From a virus, in the IMG/VR virus record IMGVR_UViG_3300045988_002400: DNA of 18,432 nucleotides, one strand, 5' to 3'. The notes under the pieces were generated by a model that had not been told where the DNA came from, did not search any database, and saw only the letters and a list, made by a program, of their open reading frames with translations. The first letter of the stretch is position 1. Each line of letters begins with the position of its first letter. The position numbers were made by a program, and so were the translations under genes. This document shows, in pieces, positions 2,731 through 10,935 of this stretch.

Positions 2731-2756
2731 GGCAATGTCCCTATAGGGATGTTGCC
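2731..2756 (+). terminator. Hairpin (11-bp stem with two G-U pairs, TATA loop) after the SSB gene
   Basis: ggcaatgtccc-tata-gggatgttgcc. There is no U-tract, so it could be a terminator, a processing site or a translational structure. It contains the ATG at 2749. Confidence 0.35.
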
Positions 2757-3768
2757 GCCAGACTCACCCCCCGCCGTTCCCATCCTTTACGGCGAGGGGT
2801 GTTTCATACTCACAGGGGGAACCGTGGCGAAACGCAAAAACCGCCGACGCGCTGACAATCTGAAACGCAACGCCGCAATCAGGTCGGCACAGGCGCGCCG
2901 GGAACGAGCCGTCAGAGATTACAGTACCGGACGACTCCCCAAGAAAATCACCGAAACGTTTTTAGGAAATCTCAGTGCCCAACAGCTTGAACAGGTCGCA
3001 CGACGCATTGGGCAGGAGTTCGGAGAGCAACAGCAAGCCTTAAGAGCGCGAGATAATGAGCCGTATCAGGTTGCCCCCGACGTTCGTATCACGAAACTTG
3101 ACCGTGAGATGGCCGCGCGTCCGCTGATAACCGACGCGGAAATCGCCGCCGCCCCGTCGAAACGGCGGAAAACATTGCGGCAGCAGCAGCGCCGCAGAGT
3201 TGAGGCACGGCAGAAAATCAAGCGCGCCCAACAATTCGAAGCCTTGAGTATGGCCCGCTATACCGTAGGGGAGATGCGTGAAATGGAACGCGCAGGGGAA
3301 TCACCGTTCGACGTGTTAGGCACTCATACAATTGGCGGTTCAGCACGCGATGAACTTACGCGGAGCCGTGCGAACGTGTTCGGTACAGAGCGTGGCTTAA
3401 GCCATGCACGCGCGATGATTCGAGAGGGGAGCCGTAGGAAACTTGAACAAGAAATGCTCGAATACGCCGGACTTATTGGACGTGCGCCATTACGTGCGGG
3501 AACTAGAAAGGTTCCCGAGAGCGAGGGTGTTTCGAATTTTGATAAAGTCGCACAGCAACTTGAAGCGTTCGACTTTAGCGTAGCTCAAAAATTCGCCGCC
3601 TTGTCGAACCGTCAAAAACGATGGCTTATAAACAACACGAATTTCAGCGCCGTAGTACGCGAAGCAACATGGTATAATGATAAGGCGCATAAATGGGAAA
3701 CTAAATCGGACGCGGGGGATGTGGAGACGCGAATCGATGAATGGATGACCAACGCAGCAAGACACTAA
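2749..3768 (+). CDS. Candidate terminal protein (very basic; alternative GTG start at 2824)
   Basis: It lies immediately upstream of the protein-primed DNAP, as in phi29 (gene 3 then gene 2). It has an Arg/Lys-rich N-terminal region (AKRKNRRRADNLKRN...) and a size near 300 aa. There is only weak C-terminal resemblance to phi29 TP. GTG at 2824 has a GGGGGA SD, whereas ATG at 2749 is buried in a hairpin. Confidence 0.55.
   Translation: MLPPDSPPAVPILYGEGCFILTGGTVAKRKNRRRADNLKRNAAIRSAQARRERAVRDYSTGRLPKKITETFLGNLSAQQLEQVARRIGQEFGEQQQALRARDNEPYQVAPDVRITKLDREMAARPLITDAEIAAAPSKRRKTLRQQQRRRVEARQKIKRAQQFEALSMARYTVGEMREMERAGESPFDVLGTHTIGGSARDELTRSRANVFGTERGLSHARAMIREGSRRKLEQEMLEYAGLIGRAPLRAGTRKVPESEGVSNFDKVAQQLEAFDFSVAQKFAALSNRQKRWLINNTNFSAVVREATWYNDKAHKWETKSDAGDVETRIDEWMTNAARH
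3670..3678 (+). promoter_or_regulatory. Possible internal promoter TGgTATAAT inside the 3' end of the TP gene
   Basis: Perfect extended -10 consensus about 108 nt upstream of the DNAP ATG at 3786. It could be a chance match in coding sequence. Confidence 0.3.
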
Positions 3769-3785
3769 AAAAAAAGGATGGAATC

Positions 3786-5246
3786 ATGCGAGAGCGTCGA
3801 ACGGCGGCAACAGACGGCGCAACATTATTGACGGATGACGGTATAACGCCATTGACGGCGAATGCCGTCATCCGGCTAACTATGCTTGATCATCATACGC
3901 GCGTATGGTGCGCACATGGATGGCAGGATATAAAGCCAATAGCGGCCGAGCTGTTGAGACGCCTCCCCCTGCAATCGAATCCGGCCAAGGATGGAGTGTA
4001 TGGCACTTTTAATATTCGCGGCCACTTCTACAGTTTCCGCGTGCGCATGGGCGGCGTCACCGTGGATTTTCTGGACGTGCGCAACATCACACGCGATGAC
4101 GGATTGAACGTTTCACGTGAAACGTTTGGAGGAGCCACCGACTTGGAAACCACATGGAATATCGCACAGGAATGCGACGCCCTGCAACTCAAGGGCACCA
4201 CCATAGCGTCTATGGCAATGAGCGATTACGTCGGGGGAGATTACGCAGGATTCAAACAGCACTTTCCGCCATTGGATAAAGCGGAATATCATCGGATGCG
4301 CCCCGCATACTATGGAGCGATAGTGTACAGCAGGCCGGGTGAATATCGGGATTGCAGGAGTTGGGATGTGAACAGTCTCTATCCGAGTATCATGCGCGAC
4401 TTTGCCATGCCGGTAGGCTCTCCCGTCTGGTATGAGGGGGAATATCATTATGACGCTGATTATCCGCTGCATATCGATGTTATCGCGTTCGACGCGCGGC
4501 TGAAAACGGGAAAAACGGCGACACTCACCAACATCCTACCCGTATGGGGGTACGAGGGCGAACGTATGGACAGCACGTTAGGCGTCGTCACCATGCCGGT
4601 AGCCGATGTGGATTGGCAGACCCTGACGGAAAACTATGATGTCCATGTGTGGGATTATGCGGGCGGCTGGAAATTCCGTAAATCGCATGGACTTTATTAC
4701 AACTACGTTGATAAATGGTTCCACGTGAAACAAACCGAAACCGGAGAGGGTCGTCAAATGGCGAAACTATTGCTTAATTCGTTGGTGGGAAAATTCGGAG
4801 CCTCACTTTACCGGCCTATGCTGCACCCGAAACCCTCTGGCGACGGCGGCGTGGATTTTACTGTGGACAAACCCGAGTCGGCCAACTCGCTCGCATGGCT
4901 ACCGACCGCCGCATATATCAACGCCTACGGTCGGCAAATACTGTCCCGTGCAATGAATGCGAACGCCGGTCGTGTACTCTACGCCGATACGGACGGCATG
5001 ATATTGGAGGGGTCAGATGCGCCCGCAGATATCGAAATGGACGATAAGAAACTGGGTGCGTGGAAAAACGACCACACCTACAGAAAACTCCGCATTCTCG
5101 GCAATCGCAAATATTGCGGCGTAGAGACAGATGGCAGCACGGTGATGCGGTTGAGTGGCGTGCATCGGGCAGCCCCTATTCCCTACGACGATTTTCTGCC
5201 GGGGTCACGCCACGTCAACGATGACGGCTGTTTTTTTGTGCTATAA
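3786..5246 (+). CDS. Protein-primed family B DNA polymerase (phi29 gp2-like), 486 aa
   Basis: - Motif A: WDVNSLYPSIM.
- YPLHI shared with phi29.
- Motif B: KLLLNSLVGKFG.
- Motif C: VLYADTDG.
- KKLGAWKNDHTYRKLRILGNRKY vs phi29 KKLGYWAHESTFKRAKYLRQKTY.
- TPR1- and TPR2-like insertions are present.
- ATG at 3786 has an AAGGA SD at 7 nt; the upstream ATG at 3741 overlaps the TP gene. Confidence 0.95.
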   Translation: MRERRTAATDGATLLTDDGITPLTANAVIRLTMLDHHTRVWCAHGWQDIKPIAAELLRRLPLQSNPAKDGVYGTFNIRGHFYSFRVRMGGVTVDFLDVRNITRDDGLNVSRETFGGATDLETTWNIAQECDALQLKGTTIASMAMSDYVGGDYAGFKQHFPPLDKAEYHRMRPAYYGAIVYSRPGEYRDCRSWDVNSLYPSIMRDFAMPVGSPVWYEGEYHYDADYPLHIDVIAFDARLKTGKTATLTNILPVWGYEGERMDSTLGVVTMPVADVDWQTLTENYDVHVWDYAGGWKFRKSHGLYYNYVDKWFHVKQTETGEGRQMAKLLLNSLVGKFGASLYRPMLHPKPSGDGGVDFTVDKPESANSLAWLPTAAYINAYGRQILSRAMNANAGRVLYADTDGMILEGSDAPADIEMDDKKLGAWKNDHTYRKLRILGNRKYCGVETDGSTVMRLSGVHRAAPIPYDDFLPGSRHVNDDGCFFVL

Positions 5247-5247
5247 T
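5239..5247 (+). promoter_or_regulatory. Extended -10 promoter TGcTATAAT overlapping the DNAP stop codon
   Basis: Consensus TGnTATAAT. The GTGCTATAAT block recurs as GTGCTATACT at 15573. The predicted TSS near 5254 has no start codon. Confidence 0.6.
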
Positions 5248-5253
5248 GACTGG

Positions 5254-5420
5254 TAGCGGGGTGTGCGTCCCAAGCCGATTCAATGGCCCGACCGGTAGGC
5301 AATCGGTAAGGCGATTCGGTTGGATGTAGACGTGCGTAGCCAACGCCCATCGACGGCGAGGGAACCCGCACAGCCTAGCAATCCGGCACGGTGGCGTGAT
5401 TGCCGCCGTGCCATTTATCT
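5254..5420 (+). ncRNA. Candidate structured non-coding RNA (pRNA-like packaging RNA, or late-operon leader/attenuator)
   Basis: This is the only long non-coding gap in the genome. A promoter sits at 5239-5247 and a terminator-like hairpin at 5385-5412, followed by ATTTATCTT. There is no ORF longer than 8 codons. Long-range pairing of 5258-5271 with 5360-5376 encloses hairpins at 5274-5307, 5319-5344 and 5344-5358. Confidence 0.4.
5385..5420 (+). terminator. Intrinsic terminator-like hairpin (ggcacggtggc / gccgccgtgcc) plus ATTTATCTT
   Basis: GC-rich 11-bp stem with one G-U pair and a 6-nt loop, followed by a U-rich tail. It lies 13 nt upstream of the scaffold gene ATG. Confidence 0.55.
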
Positions 5421-5432
5421 TAAGAGGTGATT

Positions 5433-5774
5433 ATGGACGACACCGAAAATGACGACAAGCCGGACACCACGTCCGACGCCGAACCGGACGCGACCGCCGA
5501 CGACAATACGCCGAACCCGGAGCCTGAAACGCAGGACGATAACGAACCTGAAGACGCGGGCGACGACAAGAACGCCGACATGGCCGACCGGTTGAGCGCA
5601 TTGGAGGCGACTGTGGCGGAATTGTCCAAAACCATTGAGGCGATGCGCGACGCCGCCGCCGACCATGTGCTGAACGATGGCCCCGACGACAATGCGACGC
5701 CGGAATCGGCTGAAATGACCGACGACGACTATAACGGCACCTACAGCACTTTCGACGACCTGTATGAAGACTGA
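5433..5774 (+). CDS. Putative scaffolding protein (113 aa, highly acidic, helical C-half)
   Basis: It lies directly upstream of the major capsid gene, as phi29 gp7 does. It has an Asp/Glu/Pro/Thr-rich N-half and the heptad-like segment MADRLSALEATVAELSKTIEAMRDAAA. An AAGAGG SD lies 5 nt before the ATG at 5433. Confidence 0.6.
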   Translation: MDDTENDDKPDTTSDAEPDATADDNTPNPEPETQDDNEPEDAGDDKNADMADRLSALEATVAELSKTIEAMRDAAADHVLNDGPDDNATPESAEMTDDDYNGTYSTFDDLYED

Positions 5775-5796
5775 CGATTAGGAAGGAACAACTATC

Positions 5797-7527
5797 ATGG
5801 CAACTACTCCCGTGGTGACGCCGAAGCAGCAGCTTCGCCCGCTCACCGAATTTAACAACGCTCAGATTCTGAACATGATTCGCAACGAGGCGTCGCCGGA
5901 ATACCAGCGGCGAATGCCCTCGGCCACTCAGATGAACATGGATAGGCAGATGGCTACACTCATGTCGTCCACCCAGCTCAAGAATGAGTTTTACTCGGCG
6001 CTGGTGAACCGCATCGGCGGCACTTATGTGAACACGTGGCGTTGGAACAATCCTCTCAGCGTTTTCCAGCGTGCATCGCAGGCGTATGGCGATACGTGGC
6101 AGGAAATCGCCGTTGGCATGCCGCTTGCGCAGGTCTATGATCCTGATGCGGAATATCTCGGCGCGGATAACTTCCGCAAATGGAAAATCGACGTGGACTC
6201 GCTCTATCACCGTTTAGACTTCGCCCATTGGTATCCCGCGACCACGGATGACAAGACGCTTCAGCGTGCCTTCACGTCCGAAAACGGTTTGGCCTCGCTC
6301 ACTTCGCAGATTCTCACATCCTGCTATAACGCGGCTGAAGTGGACTTGTTCGAGGCCTTGTGCCACCAATTCGTCGAGTATGCGAAGCTTGGCGGATATT
6401 GGCGTGTCCATATGGATAAGGACCTGAACAACATGGGTAGTTCGGAAACGGACGCGCGTGATATGTTGCGCCAGATTCGCGCATGGGCCGACACGCTTAA
6501 ATTCGTTTCCACCAAGTACAACGCCCGTCACATGCCGACGTTCGCTCGACCGGACGAACTCGTACTGTTCTGTTCTCCGGAAGTCAAGTCGGCGCTTGAC
6601 GTGCAGGGCCTCGCCACGGTATTCCAGCGCACCGACGCCGAACCGACCATCGACCGGATTATCGTCATTCCGCAAGACAGATTCGGCATGAATGGCGTGC
6701 AGGCCATCCTGACGACCGATAAATTCCTGATTGATATTCCGGTCATTAACGAGATGACTCAGCAGACCAATCCGGTCAACATCAATTCGGTTAACCATTA
6801 TCTGCATGTCCAGCACATCATTTCAGTGTCCGGCTTCGCTCCGGCTGTCATGTTCTGGACGGGCGCCGGTTCCACCGCGAACGTGGTGGCCCCTACCGGC
6901 ACGCAGGCTCAGACGCCGACATTCCAGCTTAAGCTTGCCATGTATGGCGGTGGCTCGGAAACTCCGAGCGATGTGGCGCGTGGTGGCGCGGTGCAAGTCA
7001 CTGCCGACACGTCTATCGGCAATGACGGTACCGCCACGTTCCGCTCCAACGCGGTCGAGTATCGTATCGGTGACACCGCCAAGCCGAAGAGCGATTACAC
7101 CTACATTTCGCCCACCGGCGTGCTGGTGGTCGGCCTCGACGAACCGAACACCACCATTCCGATTACCGCAACCGCCTTGTACACGAACCCGGCGACGCCG
7201 GAAGTGCCGGGCACCGTGTCCGCAGCCTTGGACGTGCCAGTGGTCGGTGACGGTGTTATCGGATTCAACCCGTCGATTGTCGCGTCCATTGCCGTGACAG
7301 TCCCGGGCGTGACTGTTGGACATACTGCGCAGGCTACTGCCGTGGCGACAATGATTGACGGACGCACCGCCGACGTGACCGCACAGGCGGCATGGACGTC
7401 CGGCACTCCGGCGAACGCCACCGTGTCCGAGTCCGGCGTGGTGACTGGCGTCAAAGAAGGCAGCTCTGATATCACCGCCACGCTGTTCGGCGTGTCCGGG
7501 AAGAAGAGCGTGACAGTGACCGCGTGA
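5797..7527 (+). CDS. Major capsid protein (phi29 gp8-like) with C-terminal Ig-like Big_2 domain
   Basis: By-eye alignment to phi29 gp8: NEFYSALVNRIGGTYV vs NDFITSLVDRIGLVVI; NPLSVFQRA vs NPLKKFKKG; CYNAAEVDLFEAL vs IYNSAEVDEYEYM. The C-terminus ATVSESGVVTGVKEGSSDITATLFGVSGKKSVTVTA is a typical Big_2 signature. Confidence 0.93.
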   Translation: MATTPVVTPKQQLRPLTEFNNAQILNMIRNEASPEYQRRMPSATQMNMDRQMATLMSSTQLKNEFYSALVNRIGGTYVNTWRWNNPLSVFQRASQAYGDTWQEIAVGMPLAQVYDPDAEYLGADNFRKWKIDVDSLYHRLDFAHWYPATTDDKTLQRAFTSENGLASLTSQILTSCYNAAEVDLFEALCHQFVEYAKLGGYWRVHMDKDLNNMGSSETDARDMLRQIRAWADTLKFVSTKYNARHMPTFARPDELVLFCSPEVKSALDVQGLATVFQRTDAEPTIDRIIVIPQDRFGMNGVQAILTTDKFLIDIPVINEMTQQTNPVNINSVNHYLHVQHIISVSGFAPAVMFWTGAGSTANVVAPTGTQAQTPTFQLKLAMYGGGSETPSDVARGGAVQVTADTSIGNDGTATFRSNAVEYRIGDTAKPKSDYTYISPTGVLVVGLDEPNTTIPITATALYTNPATPEVPGTVSAALDVPVVGDGVIGFNPSIVASIAVTVPGVTVGHTAQATAVATMIDGRTADVTAQAAWTSGTPANATVSESGVVTGVKEGSSDITATLFGVSGKKSVTVTA

Positions 7528-7533
7528 TATAAT
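7525..7533 (+). promoter_or_regulatory. Extended -10 promoter TGaTATAAT whose TGA is the capsid gene stop codon
   Basis: Consensus TGnTATAAT at the capsid/tail junction, with the same TGATATAAT block as at 9967. Confidence 0.5.
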
Positions 7534-7577: not shown

Positions 7578-7622
7578 GACAAGGCCCGGAGCGTAATCCA
7601 CGTGATTGCTCCGGGCCTTGTC
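7578..7622 (+). terminator. Hairpin 2 after the capsid gene (perfect 15-bp stem, extendable by 4 bp)
   Basis: gacaaggcccggagc ... gctccgggccttgtc. The loop can add aatc/gatt pairs. It ends 5 nt before the GGAGG SD of the tail gene and has no U-tract. Confidence 0.5.
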
Positions 7623-7632
7623 ATACCGGAGG

Positions 7633-9969
7633 ATGATGATGATGATTGACGACGTGAACCCTTATGTGGAGTCGAATTTCTCGTGGGCGGAATGGACGCC
7701 AAACACGACACTGAAACTCTGCCGTGTGCCGTGGGATGCTTCATACCGTGATATCGTGCGGTTTGGTTCACGTGAAACACAGCAAGAATGGTTCGACAAA
7801 CTGGACGGCGTGGAATGCCGTCCGGCCACCATGCATATTTTCAACGCGCCCGCCCGCGTCGAACTGCCGTTTAACGAAGCGTCGAACTGGAATTATCTTG
7901 TAGCCTATAACGATTACCCCGAATTGGAGGGGCCACGCGCATGGTATTACTTCATTCAGCGCGTCGAATACGTCAACGCCCATTGCACACAACTCGTTTT
8001 GATGCTGGACGTGTGGCAGAGTTTCCAGCATGACGTCACATTCGGCAGCTGCTATGTGACGCGCGGCCATATCGGCGTCGCCAACGAACGCCAGTGGAAC
8101 GACTACGGGCGCACATATCTGGCGCTTCCTGAAGGTTTGGACACCGGCAGTGAAATGGTCACAACGTCACAGGAATATCAGAGCATCATCGAAGGTCGGC
8201 ATTATGACATAGACGGCGGTGCCGTCGATTGGGTCGATTACGGTCTGATTGTGGTCAGCACCACGAATCTTACCGACGACCCCGGCAGCACTTCCGAACC
8301 AAAGCTTACCACCGCAACCGGGGCCATCTTCGAGCAGGAGACGGACGGCTGTTCCGTCTACTATTGTGAAAATCGAATGGCGTATGTCGCCAACATCATG
8401 GCGCTTGGCACGCTATTCCCTTGGGTGACGCAAGGTATTTGTGCCGTATACATGGTGCCGAAAATTCCACAGGATTACGTGAGTCGATATGGACATAGGG
8501 TTACGGAGATTTACGGACAGCAGGTGTCCGAGGAATATGGCAGCATCTATTCTTTCAATTCCTCCCTCGATTCGGATTTACGCTACGAAGACGTTATGTC
8601 TGTTGCGAACTTTCGTAATAAATTCAACATCCCCGCCCGATACCGGAATCTGCGCAAACTCTACTGTTATCCGTTCTGCCTTATCGAATGCAGCTGCCTG
8701 AACGGTACGGTCATTACTTATCGACCTGAAGATGTCCAATCCGATACGCTCACTATCCGTGAGACCTACACTTACGCACCGTCCGGCGCAAGAATCAATT
8801 TCTACATTCCCGGATACAATGAGGCCGGAGCGAGTACTACGGTTCCGCTGCGCATTGACGGCAAGGATATGGGGCTGCCGATAGACGGCGGCGAAATGCT
8901 CAACGCAAGTTTCGGCATCACCAATCTGCCCCATTTTTCCGTAGTCAACAACGGCGGCGCGCTGGCGATGGCGAACAGCGCGTACACCCGCGCCTACGCG
9001 CAGGAGTCAGCCCAATGGACTAGACAGAAGGCGTTGGCTTCGGCAAACGTGGCCAACTCTAATGCCGCATTGCAGCGCGAATACGCCACGCGGCAAACCA
9101 ACTGGGCAAACGAGAACAGGACGGCAACCAATGCCATCACGGCAAACTCGCTAAACCAGTCTCTTGCCATAGGACAGAATCAAACCAGTCAGATGGCTAA
9201 TCTCCAAGTGGAGCAGAACATCAAGAGCAACAATCTCAATGGTATGGCCGGCATCATTGGCGGGGGACTGAACGCCGTCGCATCCCGCAGCCCGTTAGGC
9301 GCGGTGAACGCGGTTGGCGGCGCGTTCCTCGGCTCCGCGCAGACAGATCTCGCCAATTACGGTATCAATTCGTCGGCTGCTGTCTCCAACTCTACGGCGG
9401 CGGCGAATACGGCGAATCAGATTGCCACCAATGCGGCGGCTACATCGCAGGCCAACGCCTACGCGAGCGGAGCGACCGCACTGGGCAACCAGCTGAACGC
9501 CGTCGTGTCGCAGGCGAATTACGGACTGGCCTCGTATGCGGCTCAAGGCGATTACCAGAACGCCATCGCTGGTATCAACGCTCAGGTGCAGCAGATGCAA
9601 CTGACTCCGCCAACCACTTCGGGAGCGCTTGGTGGTGACATGTTCAACTTAAGCAACGGAATCATGGGCGTGTTGGTGCGGTTCAAGACGTGTGCGCCAA
9701 GCGCACTGAGGGCGGCAGGTGAATACATGCTGCGCTATGGATATTTTGTCCAGCGTTTCGTTACCCCTCCCGCCTCGCTGGAGTGCATGGAGAAATTCAC
9801 GTTCTGGCAGATGCAGGAAGCGTATGTGCGGGGCACGTTGCCCGAGGAATACCGCTTGACCATCAAGGGCATGTTCGAACGTGGCGTGACGGTCTGGAAC
9901 AAGCCCGAATATATCGGCGTGACCGACTGGGCGGACAATGAGCCACTTCCGGGCATTGGTTACGAGTGA
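7633..9969 (+). CDS. Tail knob protein (phi29 gp9-like)
   Basis: By-eye alignment to phi29 gp9: [28 protein letters not shown] vs [65 protein letters not shown] vs [37 protein letters not shown]. Four consecutive ATGs lie at 7633-7644 after GGAGG (7628-7632), and 7639 or 7642 have the best spacing. The 7606 start lies inside hairpin 2. Confidence 0.9.
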   Translation: [778 protein letters not shown]

Positions 9970-9975
9970 TATAAT
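9967..9975 (+). promoter_or_regulatory. Extended -10 promoter TGaTATAAT (TGA is the tail-knob stop) set 6 nt before the connector ATG
   Basis: TATAAT at 9970-9975, spacer ggcaat, ATG at 9982. No SD is present. Confidence 0.55.
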
Positions 9976-9981
9976 GGCAAT

Positions 9982-10935
9982 ATGAGCAGGTCTAAAAAAA
10001 AGAATCGAGTTGGCGGCGCGTTGCACCCGCGCGGCAATTACGCGAAAACACGCGCCGTCACACTTGATGACATGTATCTTCATTTACTGATGGAACTCGC
10101 GCTGAACCGTTTCAGTTGGCGCGGATTGCCGCCCACTGTGGATGAACGTTGGCTGGAAATATGTCTGTGCGAATACGGTTGCGCGTTGTTTTTCGAGGAC
10201 AAGCGTATCGGCAGGTTCCTCGTGACTCAGGCCGGATATCAGGGCAGACTGAACGTGTACAATAATCCGACACGCTTCGAACCGGTAGGCGTCAACTACC
10301 ACTACAGGCAGCTCAAAGCAGGGGCGGAATGCATTCCAATTTGGGATAATCGAATGCGCGTCGGATTCAAACCGACGTTATGGCAGTACGCGCGACGACT
10401 GGCCGATATCGACAAGGCGTATGACGTGAACTTGGAGAGTCTGAAACTACCCACCATCATCACCGCCGACCCCCGCACAAAACTCACCGTACAGAACATG
10501 CTTCAACAACGGCAGGACGGTCAGGATTATATCATCGGATACGATTCGCTTGACCCCGGCAGCATGTTCCAGCCGTGGCCGAACACTACGCCTTACCTGT
10601 TGGACAAGTTCATTCAACAGAAGACGCAGGTGACTAACGAGGTGCTGGGATATCTTGGCATTCAATCTTCCGGCACGGAGAAAAAGGAACGGCTGATATC
10701 CGATGAGGTGGCGCAAGCCAATGAAAAAGTAGACGTTTTCCGATTAAGTTTTCTGAAGGCGCGGCAGACTGCGGCGACCGAGATTAACCGATTGTGGCCG
10801 CAGCTTAATATCTGGGTGGAATACGCGGACGCGCAAAGCTCCGGCGTGCCCAACGCGCTTGATTCGAGCGCAAGCGGTACGACGGATATTGATATGCCCG
10901 CATCATATGACGCGGGTATCGGAGGTGTGTTGTAA
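9982..10935 (+). CDS. Head-tail connector / portal (upper collar, phi29 gp10-like)
   Basis: By-eye alignment to phi29 gp10: FSWRGLPPTVDERWLEICL vs FEWENLPPTINPSFLEKSI; EKKERLISDEV vs EKKERMVTDEV. It has a basic N-terminus and a similar length (317 vs 309 aa). Confidence 0.93.
   Translation: MSRSKKKNRVGGALHPRGNYAKTRAVTLDDMYLHLLMELALNRFSWRGLPPTVDERWLEICLCEYGCALFFEDKRIGRFLVTQAGYQGRLNVYNNPTRFEPVGVNYHYRQLKAGAECIPIWDNRMRVGFKPTLWQYARRLADIDKAYDVNLESLKLPTIITADPRTKLTVQNMLQQRQDGQDYIIGYDSLDPGSMFQPWPNTTPYLLDKFIQQKTQVTNEVLGYLGIQSSGTEKKERLISDEVAQANEKVDVFRLSFLKARQTAATEINRLWPQLNIWVEYADAQSSGVPNALDSSASGTTDIDMPASYDAGIGGVL

Follow-up and report, generated by a model that had tools for sequence, protein, structure and literature searches.

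A conserved structured RNA between the polymerase and scaffold genes of a phi29-like phage, a candidate Bifidobacterium-type counterpart of prohead RNA

Introduction

To our knowledge, no RNA other than the prohead (packaging) RNA, or pRNA, is known to be essential as a structural part of a viral DNA-packaging motor. Here we describe an RNA encoded in a non-coding gap of the 18,432 bp genome of a phi29-like podovirus (IMG/VR virus record IMGVR_UViG_3300045988_002400; this whole stretch of DNA is referred to below as the window). The gap lies between the DNA polymerase gene and the gene at the scaffold position, and comparative analysis suggests that its RNA is probably a Bifidobacterium-type counterpart of the phi29 pRNA, albeit a deeply diverged one. 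An earlier note, made from the nucleotide sequence of the window alone, had proposed a pRNA-like unit at this place running from a promoter to a terminator, and the proposal is supported in silico by conservation, by covariation, by a pRNA topology and by the complementarity of a bulge with the loop of a hairpin (the D loop).

A 2024 review regards pRNA as confined, on current knowledge, to phi29 and its relatives among the phages of Bacillus (PMC11476376), and a full-text search for literature joining prohead RNA with Bifidobacterium returned nothing beyond this review. A pRNA was proposed in 1996 for Streptococcus phage Cp-1, and it is not reliably found by a covariance model of Bacillus-phage pRNAs (PMC6266182). 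Cp-1 is the only other pRNA proposal outside the Bacillus phages that we are aware of, and no pRNA feature is annotated in its GenBank record.

A predicted promoter-to-terminator unit in the polymerase-scaffold gap

The gap spans 186 nt (5247-5432) from the polymerase open reading frame (ORF) to the scaffold-position ORF and, as the earlier note had recognized in describing a single long gap of about 185 nt, no other non-coding stretch inside the genome exceeds 100 nt, the terminal repeats being the only other non-coding sequence. It opens with the extended -10 element TGCTATAAT at 5239-5247, which overlaps the polymerase stop codon (TAA, 5244-5246) exactly as had been described; no -35 element is evident upstream of 5239. 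The motif TGnTATAAT is invariant in 78 relatives in which the neighbouring codons for the polymerase C-terminus vary, and the same -10 motif ends the polymerase gene in phages BD811P2 and BadAztec1 and in two sub-clades of relatives with 77% and 82% capsid protein identity. Sequence conservation starts at about 5253-5256, 6-9 nt past the -10 element, and the primary transcript predicted from the motifs at either end is about 165 nt long (5254-5421, + strand).

Perfect copies of TGNTATAAT are also present on the + strand upstream of other gene starts, at 3670-3678 preceding the polymerase gene, at 7525-7533 at the capsid stop codon before the tail knob gene, and at 9967-9975, where the tail knob gene stops ahead of the connector gene. 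When up to one mismatch is allowed there are 27 matches to TGNTATAAT, against 11.9 expected, and we note that these sites resemble the phage's own promoter set. BadAztec-type phages have GTGCTATAAT at three gene boundaries. Recurring as it does at gene starts in the window and at the BadAztec boundaries, the motif therefore acts like the characteristic promoter of these phages.

The unit closes with a terminator hairpin at 5385-5412 (+ strand), which forms the 3' domain of the RNA and is the top terminator-like site of the window. It has the loop UGAU and the tail ATTTATCTT, and is followed directly by AUUUAUCUU at 5413-5421. The GC-rich terminator stands where the earlier note had placed it, with a stem of 12 pairs (9 of them G-C, closed by the 4-nt loop) and not of 11. 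Across 84 aligned window-type sequences (see below) 97% of the terminator cells are paired, and 6 of the 12 pairs are doubly compensated. The + strand of the gap folds better than its shuffles (z = -3.5; z = -2.1 for the - strand), and a covariance model of the window-type RNA, R1, has one + strand match in the window, at 5251-5417 with 194 bits.

Conservation of the unit among relatives

Close relatives are abundant in IMG/VR, mostly in one metagenome collection together with some other metagenomes. A gap at the same position is present in more than 150 related metagenomic phages as well as in the cultured Bifidobacterium phages BD811P2, BP1 and BadAztec1, and the unit was found at this position in every relative examined, down to 36-42% capsid protein identity. 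All 80 of the relatives fetched with capsid identities of 91-99% have the gap, in which they are 86-96% identical. In a 1-kb alignment about 6 columns in every 30 nt vary within the core of the unit (5260-5379), compared with 11-16 in the flanking polymerase and scaffold coding sequences, and the core is more constrained than the neighbouring genes. The two additional sub-clades at 82% and 77% capsid identity, which were obtained by protein search, carry the same unit with many base changes; a search of the viral collection with the capsid protein of the 82% sub-clade returned the window's clade only.

The nearest cultured phages by capsid protein all have Bifidobacterium hosts, and are BadAztec and BadAargau (42%) followed by BD811P1-3 and BP1 (36-37%). 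The equivalent gaps in BD811P2, BP1, BadAztec1 and BadAargau2 are 178-230 nt long. At the polymerase stop codon, where they open, they have TGCTATAAT or TGCTATAGT, and they close with a strong G+C hairpin. By nucleotide search against GenBank phages the genome is without a near match, and the gap gave chance matches only.

A single fold supported by covariation

The 84 distinct window-type sequences were aligned by MAFFT, with no fitting to structure. On this alignment the fold model pairs 95.9% of the cells, with double changes at 26 pairs (316 cells); none of 500 shuffles matched the observed pairing values, and controls in which the register was slid paired 29-41% of the cells with no more than 7 doubly changed pairs. 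RNAalifold independently recovers the same closing, inner and C helices, the E hairpin and the terminator (45 pairs, 25 of them compensated). A one-column shift in the MAFFT alignment is mended in a model-fitted alignment, where the D stem is 100% paired and three of its four pairs are doubly changed. G-U pairs make up 331 of the 4525 paired cells (7%); a G-U pair is C-A on the other strand, and the pairing signal therefore comes from a + strand RNA and not from DNA. For the window sequence itself the comparative fold costs 1.7 kcal/mol relative to the minimum free energy (MFE) structure (-51.9 versus -53.6 kcal/mol). The earlier note had named covariation across related genomes as a check of its proposal, and compensatory changes are what was found: the alignments support one predicted fold, made up of a closing helix, a three-way junction, an arm of C helix, bulge and E hairpin, a D hairpin and the terminator. 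Taken together with the conservation of the unit, we consider it very likely that the gap is a real, conserved gene for a structured RNA.

The folded domain of about 124 nt occupies 5256-5379 on the + strand and is enclosed by a closing helix that is interrupted by internal loops and has about 26 bp, in which 5256-5286 pairs with 5347-5379 (92-97% paired, with 10 pairs doubly changed). The outer portion, the A helix, joins 5256-5271 (GC GGG. UGUGCG UCCC) to 5360-5379 (GGGA, an ACC bulge, CGCACA. CCU. GC), with double changes at 5262:5372, 5263:5371, 5267:5367 and 5270:5361, and is also recovered both by RNAalifold and in the single-sequence MFE structure. The long-range helix drawn by the earlier note between 5258-5271 and 5360-5376 is part of it, and so stands, being recovered by RNAalifold and backed by compensatory changes. 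An inner extension of the closing helix pairs 5274-5286 (GCCG .. UCAAUGG) with 5347-5357, with double changes at 5274:5357, 5276:5355, 5282:5351, 5283:5350 and 5285:5348.

Within the closing helix, the C helix is formed by 5288-5294 (CCGACCG) and 5317-5323 (CGGUUGG); it is 99.7% paired and five of its seven pairs are doubly changed. Its 5' strand is followed by a one-sided 5' bulge, GUAGGC (5295-5300), which has nothing opposite it and lies in the position of the phi29 CE (right-hand) loop, and then by the E hairpin at 5301-5316 (stem AAUCG and CGAUU, loop GUAAGG), in which three of five pairs are doubly changed and whose loop is conserved across sub-clades at 77-99%. A single-stranded linker of conserved sequence, AUGUAGACGU (5324-5333), leads from C to D across the junction, and the D hairpin with its covarying stem follows at 5334-5346 (GCGU, loop AGCCA, ACGC). 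We note that GAUGUA.A of the linker is kept even in the 77% sub-clade, despite changes in the neighbouring helices.

The interior of the fold differs from that first drawn. The inner hairpins of the earlier note (5274-5307, 5319-5344 and 5344-5358) do not belong to the conserved fold, because 5274-5286 pairs with 5347-5357 and the true arms are 5288-5323 and 5334-5346. The interior of the single-sequence MFE structure, including a hairpin at 5292-5307, was rejected, as both the 77% sub-clade and variants within the clade compensate for the model with C, E and D elements. An all-against-all covariation scan that allowed G-U pairs was swamped by phylogenetic correlation, and was replaced by the targeted counts with slid-register controls.

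The sister clade and more distant relatives

For the comparison of helices and loops with phi29 pRNA we used the consensus structure line of the Rfam pRNA family, RF00044, as reference. Its plan begins with an A helix and a C helix of 9 bp that carries a 1-nt 5' bulge. A one-sided bulge of 9 nt, with no bases opposite, leads to an E stem of 4 bp whose loop has 6 nt; the linker UUU and a D stem of 6 bp, with a loop of 5 nt, follow before the chain re-enters the A helix. This plan is matched almost one for one in the sister clade of BD811P2-like phages, which has 80 members and 68 distinct versions of the RNA at 71-89% identity. In these 68 sequences 95.6% of the cells are paired and 19 pairs are doubly changed, whereas slid controls pair 35-48%. 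The BD811P2-like RNA shares with phi29 pRNA the long closing helices, the C helix of 9 bp and its 1-nt 5' bulge, the E stem of 4 bp, and the D stem of 6 bp whose loop has 5 nt; its one-sided bulge has 7 nt compared to 9 in RF00044, and its E loop 7 nt compared to 6.

The closing-helix region in this clade also has a nearly invariant direct repeat, GAUUUUCG, on both of its strands (L083:4746-4753 and 4835-4842; columns 21-28 and 118-124 of alignment A2). The fold pairs only parts of the repeat (GA with UC, and UCG with CGA), and it may be a protein-binding site.

The BadAztec clade is represented by five distinct sequences only, the metagenome scan included, and in these, inspection by eye shows compensatory changes that support the A helix, the C helix, a 9-nt bulge and the E hairpin. 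A stem of the BadAztec MFE structure that arises from self-pairing of GGUGCC is contradicted by the variants and was discarded.

Beyond the Bifidobacterium phages, Arthrobacter phage Anjali has two long, strongly structured gaps (3336-3637 and 5636-5962; z = -4.6 and -4.9), one of which directly precedes the scaffold-position gene. Curtobacterium phage Reje has short gaps at the comparable place, but 553 nt (1-553) lie ahead of its first annotated gene. The gaps in Anjali and Reje differ in size and position from that of the window, and these stretches are places to look for more pRNA-like RNAs.

Complementarity of the bulge and the D loop

In phi29, AACC at the end of the bulge pairs with GGUU at the end of the D loop of a neighbouring pRNA molecule. 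A corresponding complementarity is present in the window-type RNA, where GGC of the bulge (5298-5300) is complementary to GCC of the D loop (5339-5341). These bases are invariant in 83 of the 84 sequences (99.6% paired, with no variation and hence no covariation), and the first three bases of the bulge vary freely. The contact is extended to 5 bp in 13 of the 84 sequences, which form two separate sets (shuffle P about 0.005 for each): the 77% sub-clade has UGGCA/UGCCA, whereas L032, L053 and L068 of the main clade have GGCAA/UUGCC.

The BD811P2-like clade provides a variable version of the same contact. The last four bases of its bulge, (G/A)CCA, pair with the last four of its D loop, UGG(C/U), in 98.5% of cells, in the same register as AACC/GGUU of phi29. 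The contact pair 57:103 covaries: 57 sequences have G-C, 7 have G-U and 4 have A-U, the last of these in three different sequence backgrounds. Complementarity of this kind is the hallmark of pRNA ring formation; the sequences are compatible with pairing within a molecule as well as between molecules, and pairing between molecules is proposed by analogy with phi29.

Evaluation of a pRNA counterpart and its alternatives

A number of results weigh against a pRNA counterpart. The earlier note had suggested a scan with the Rfam pRNA model, and this has no match in the window or the gap, either with the whole window at the gathering score or with 5150-5500 at E <= 10; nor does RF00044 match the loci of five relatives at E <= 1. 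The positive control, phi29, scores 145 bits (E = 1.5e-35). A 19-bit Rfam match to a mycobacterial small RNA is on the wrong strand and was set aside as chance. Model R1, in turn, does not detect the RNAs of BD811P2-type, BadAztec, Arthrobacter or Curtobacterium phages. With no RF00044 match and no detection of the sister clade by R1, we therefore infer common descent from position and shape, and not from sequence. Shuffled loops reach at least 3 bp in 19% of trials, such that the 3-bp contact of the window is not significant alone, and in the five BadAztec-type sequences neither the D arm nor the kissing pair can be assigned. In the window's clade there is no second promoter between the terminator and the scaffold gene, as would be expected for a leader. 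Lastly, the gene lies in the middle of the genome (5239-5421), between polymerase and scaffold genes on the late-gene strand, and not at the left end as in phi29, a difference that the earlier note had correctly pointed out; a left-end gene read from an early promoter is typical of the family, if not strictly defining. The window RNA is thus missed by the sequence model of RF00044 and has the architecture of a pRNA.

The genome ends, where phi29 has its pRNA gene, were considered as an alternative location. A consensus-like promoter, TTGACA-16-TAAAAT, faces outward in each terminal repeat, at 156-129 (-) and 18277-18304 (+), and at the left end the + strand of the repeat is rich in T. The terminal non-coding regions fold worse than shuffles (z = +2.9 and +1.75), and a pRNA at the ends, with the outward promoter-like match at 156-129, was rejected on this ground.

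The alternative that survives best, although it is unlikely, is that the scaffold-capsid operon has in this RNA a 5' leader or attenuator acting in cis, with no role in packaging, whose terminator would gate the expression of late genes, for example when a factor of the phage or the host binds the folded domain. In the window's clade no promoter-like site other than that at 5239 lies upstream of the scaffold and capsid genes, and the terminator directly precedes the scaffold gene, ending 20 nt before its start codon with only a ribosome-binding site between; BadAztec-type phages have the same layout. With no promoter after the terminator in either group, scaffold and capsid mRNA are therefore probably made by read-through. 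Upstream segments can also form some alternative pairings of 5-6 bp with the terminator arms, but these are short and rich in wobble pairs, and the terminator arms covary only with each other. Moreover, the BD811P2-like clade keeps the RNA and yet has a conserved second promoter of its own, TGATATAAT, between the terminator and the scaffold gene. The RNA would therefore be a separate gene there, and late mRNA started from TGATATAAT is without the folded structure, so that the structure is not always included in late mRNA. A leader also leaves unexplained the 124-nt domain with pRNA topology, the invariant complementary loops and the long closing helix. As the RNA of the window's clade is the 5' part of the scaffold/capsid transcription unit, a leader function is possible as an additional role. 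We conclude from these arrangements that the RNA would be a trans-acting product, and that its terminator would also meter late transcription in some clades.

It is also conceivable, if quite unlikely, that the phage makes a small RNA that acts in trans in a job other than packaging, such as a regulator or sponge of host or phage transcripts, or a protein-sequestering RNA. Such an RNA would fit a discrete unit running from promoter to terminator, with conserved loops GUAAGG, GGC and GCC and a conserved AUGUA linker, that matches no Rfam family. However, the conserved loops complement each other and not obviously a target (no target search was made), and an element-by-element match to pRNA in a phage with gp10 and gp16 makes an unrelated job less parsimonious.

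A reading with no RNA function at all, in which the gap is a DNA-level element (a protein site or cruciform) or an overlooked small protein gene, can point to ORFs of 27-62 aa that overlap the gap, and it is very improbable and largely refuted, as 7% of the paired cells are G-U, compensatory changes keep the pairing and not the sequence, and the overlapping ORFs are not conserved, being frameshifted or broken by indels in relatives. These ORFs, for example 5246-5329 (+) and the 62-aa ORF 5183-5371 (-), are at odds with the statement of the earlier note that none exceeds 8 codons; the frame of the 62-aa ORF shifts among close relatives, and the gap region has polymorphic 1-nt indels.

Genome context

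The inverted terminal repeats of 260 bp (1-260 and 18173-18432, 96% complementary) at both ends show that the window is a complete linear genome. It has a G+C content of about 54% and carries nearly all of its genes on the + strand, cell-wall hydrolases being among the products; neither tRNA nor tmRNA genes were found in the window. The gap is bordered by a type-B DNA polymerase ORF (3741-5246, +; Pfam DNA_pol_B_2, E = 5e-31) and by the scaffold-position ORF, the ATG of which is at 5433 (+). Downstream on the same strand are the phi29-type major capsid protein (5797-7527; Phi29_MCP, E = 5e-86), a gp9-like tail knob (7606-9969), a gp10-type connector (9982-10935; Phage_connector, E = 4e-42) and a gp16-type packaging ATPase (15571-16692; Podovirus_Gp16, E = 2.5e-43, residues 17-355). 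The connector and ATPase that the earlier note had recognized are thus both matched by Pfam, and the phi29-type motor genes are accompanied by the hallmarks of protein-primed replication, namely the type-B polymerase and the terminal repeats. The connector has a basic N-terminus, MSRSKKKNR, which we take to be comparable to the pRNA-binding basic N-terminus of phi29 gp10.

Among various other features, we note that a 339-aa ORF (2749-3768) without Pfam or PHROG match overlaps by 28 nt the start of the polymerase gene, whose product is unusually short (501 aa). By its position this ORF probably encodes the terminal protein, and an unannotated ORF of about 318-321 aa is present at the equivalent place in BD811P2, BadAztec1 and the 82% sub-clade. 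At the right end, an 11-bp hairpin (17875-17902) that scores as a terminator on both strands sits between the last rightward gene, that of an amidase, which stops at 17851, and an 85-aa ORF in the leftward direction (17915-18172), whose transcription would start from the right terminal repeat; the hairpin is probably a bidirectional terminator. The capsid protein has a C-terminal bacterial Ig-like domain (residues approximately 490-576), which is common to the capsid proteins of Bifidobacterium phages, aligned over 97-98% of the query.

A proposed role in packaging and its implications

By analogy with phi29, several copies of the RNA, each by the end that carries the C, E and D elements, would bind to the empty prohead at its portal vertex, aided by the basic N-terminus of the connector, and neighbouring copies would be joined into a ring by pairing of the bulge with the D loop. 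The long closing helix would then point outward and dock the gp16 ATPase, and the RNA would leave once the genome, capped by its terminal protein, is packaged. In the window's clade partial read-through of the terminator would supply scaffold and capsid mRNA, and the efficiency of termination would presumably set the ratio of free RNA to late mRNA.

We lean slightly towards a broader view, in which an RNA-containing motor is ancestral and widespread in phi29-like phages, and the lineage of the Bifidobacterium type has kept the shape of the pRNA and not its sequence. In the window's clade the transcript may in that case double as a leader for scaffold and capsid mRNA, coupling the supply of motor RNA to that of head proteins.

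The comparisons suggest that RNA-containing packaging motors may also occur outside the Bacillus phages. If a pRNA is indeed present in phages of Actinobacteria, then the RNA component of the motor would be old and general, which bears on whether pRNA is a relic of an RNA world or a late replacement of a protein domain. It would also provide natural families, with more than 150 sequences in several clades, that show which features of the fold matter, as well as G+C-rich three-way-junction scaffolds for RNA nanotechnology. Annotation based on Rfam misses RNAs of this pRNA-like class, which position together with covariation reveals, and the availability of cultured phages with known hosts (BD811P1-3, BP1 and BadAztec) makes the reading testable.

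Comparison with known systems

Attenuator leaders of late operons share with the window's unit the order of promoter, structured RNA and intrinsic terminator directly upstream of scaffold and capsid genes. They differ in that no conserved antiterminator was found here, although no three-way covariation test dedicated to it was run, and in that the folded domain is far larger than an attenuator requires.

The putative pRNA of Cp-1 comes from a phage with a host of another phylum, and no sequence similarity to the window RNA was seen. As with the window RNA, it belongs to a phi29-like phage that does not infect Bacillus; covariance models of Bacillus pRNAs do not find it reliably (PMC6266182). 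In Cp-1 a strongly structured non-coding stretch (4683-4875, z = -4.2) separates the early genes from the scaffold gene, in the same relative position as the window RNA. This stretch also holds the mapped late promoters PL1 and PL2.

The window-type RNA differs from phi29 pRNA in several dimensions. It has a C helix of 7 bp (9 in phi29), a D stem of 4 bp (6 in phi29), a 6-nt bulge, and an E stem of 5 bp with a 6-nt loop; its linker from C to D has 10 nt in place of UUU, its kissing core is GGC/GCC in place of AACC/GGUU, and its G+C content is 62% compared to 41%. The closing helix has a 3-nt bulge on its 3' strand, unlike that of phi29 pRNA, and the 5' strands of the two closing helices are of similar length, at 31 and 28 nt, respectively. 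The likeness lies in the organization of the whole: both are stand-alone units, predicted in the case of the window, of approximately 165-175 nt in which a domain of about 120 nt is enclosed by a long, bulged helix of 5' and 3' strands and is followed by a 3' hairpin, both have a three-way junction with one arm of C helix, 5' bulge and E hairpin and another of a D hairpin with a 5-nt loop, and in both the bases at the 3' end of the bulge complement those in the loop of the D hairpin.

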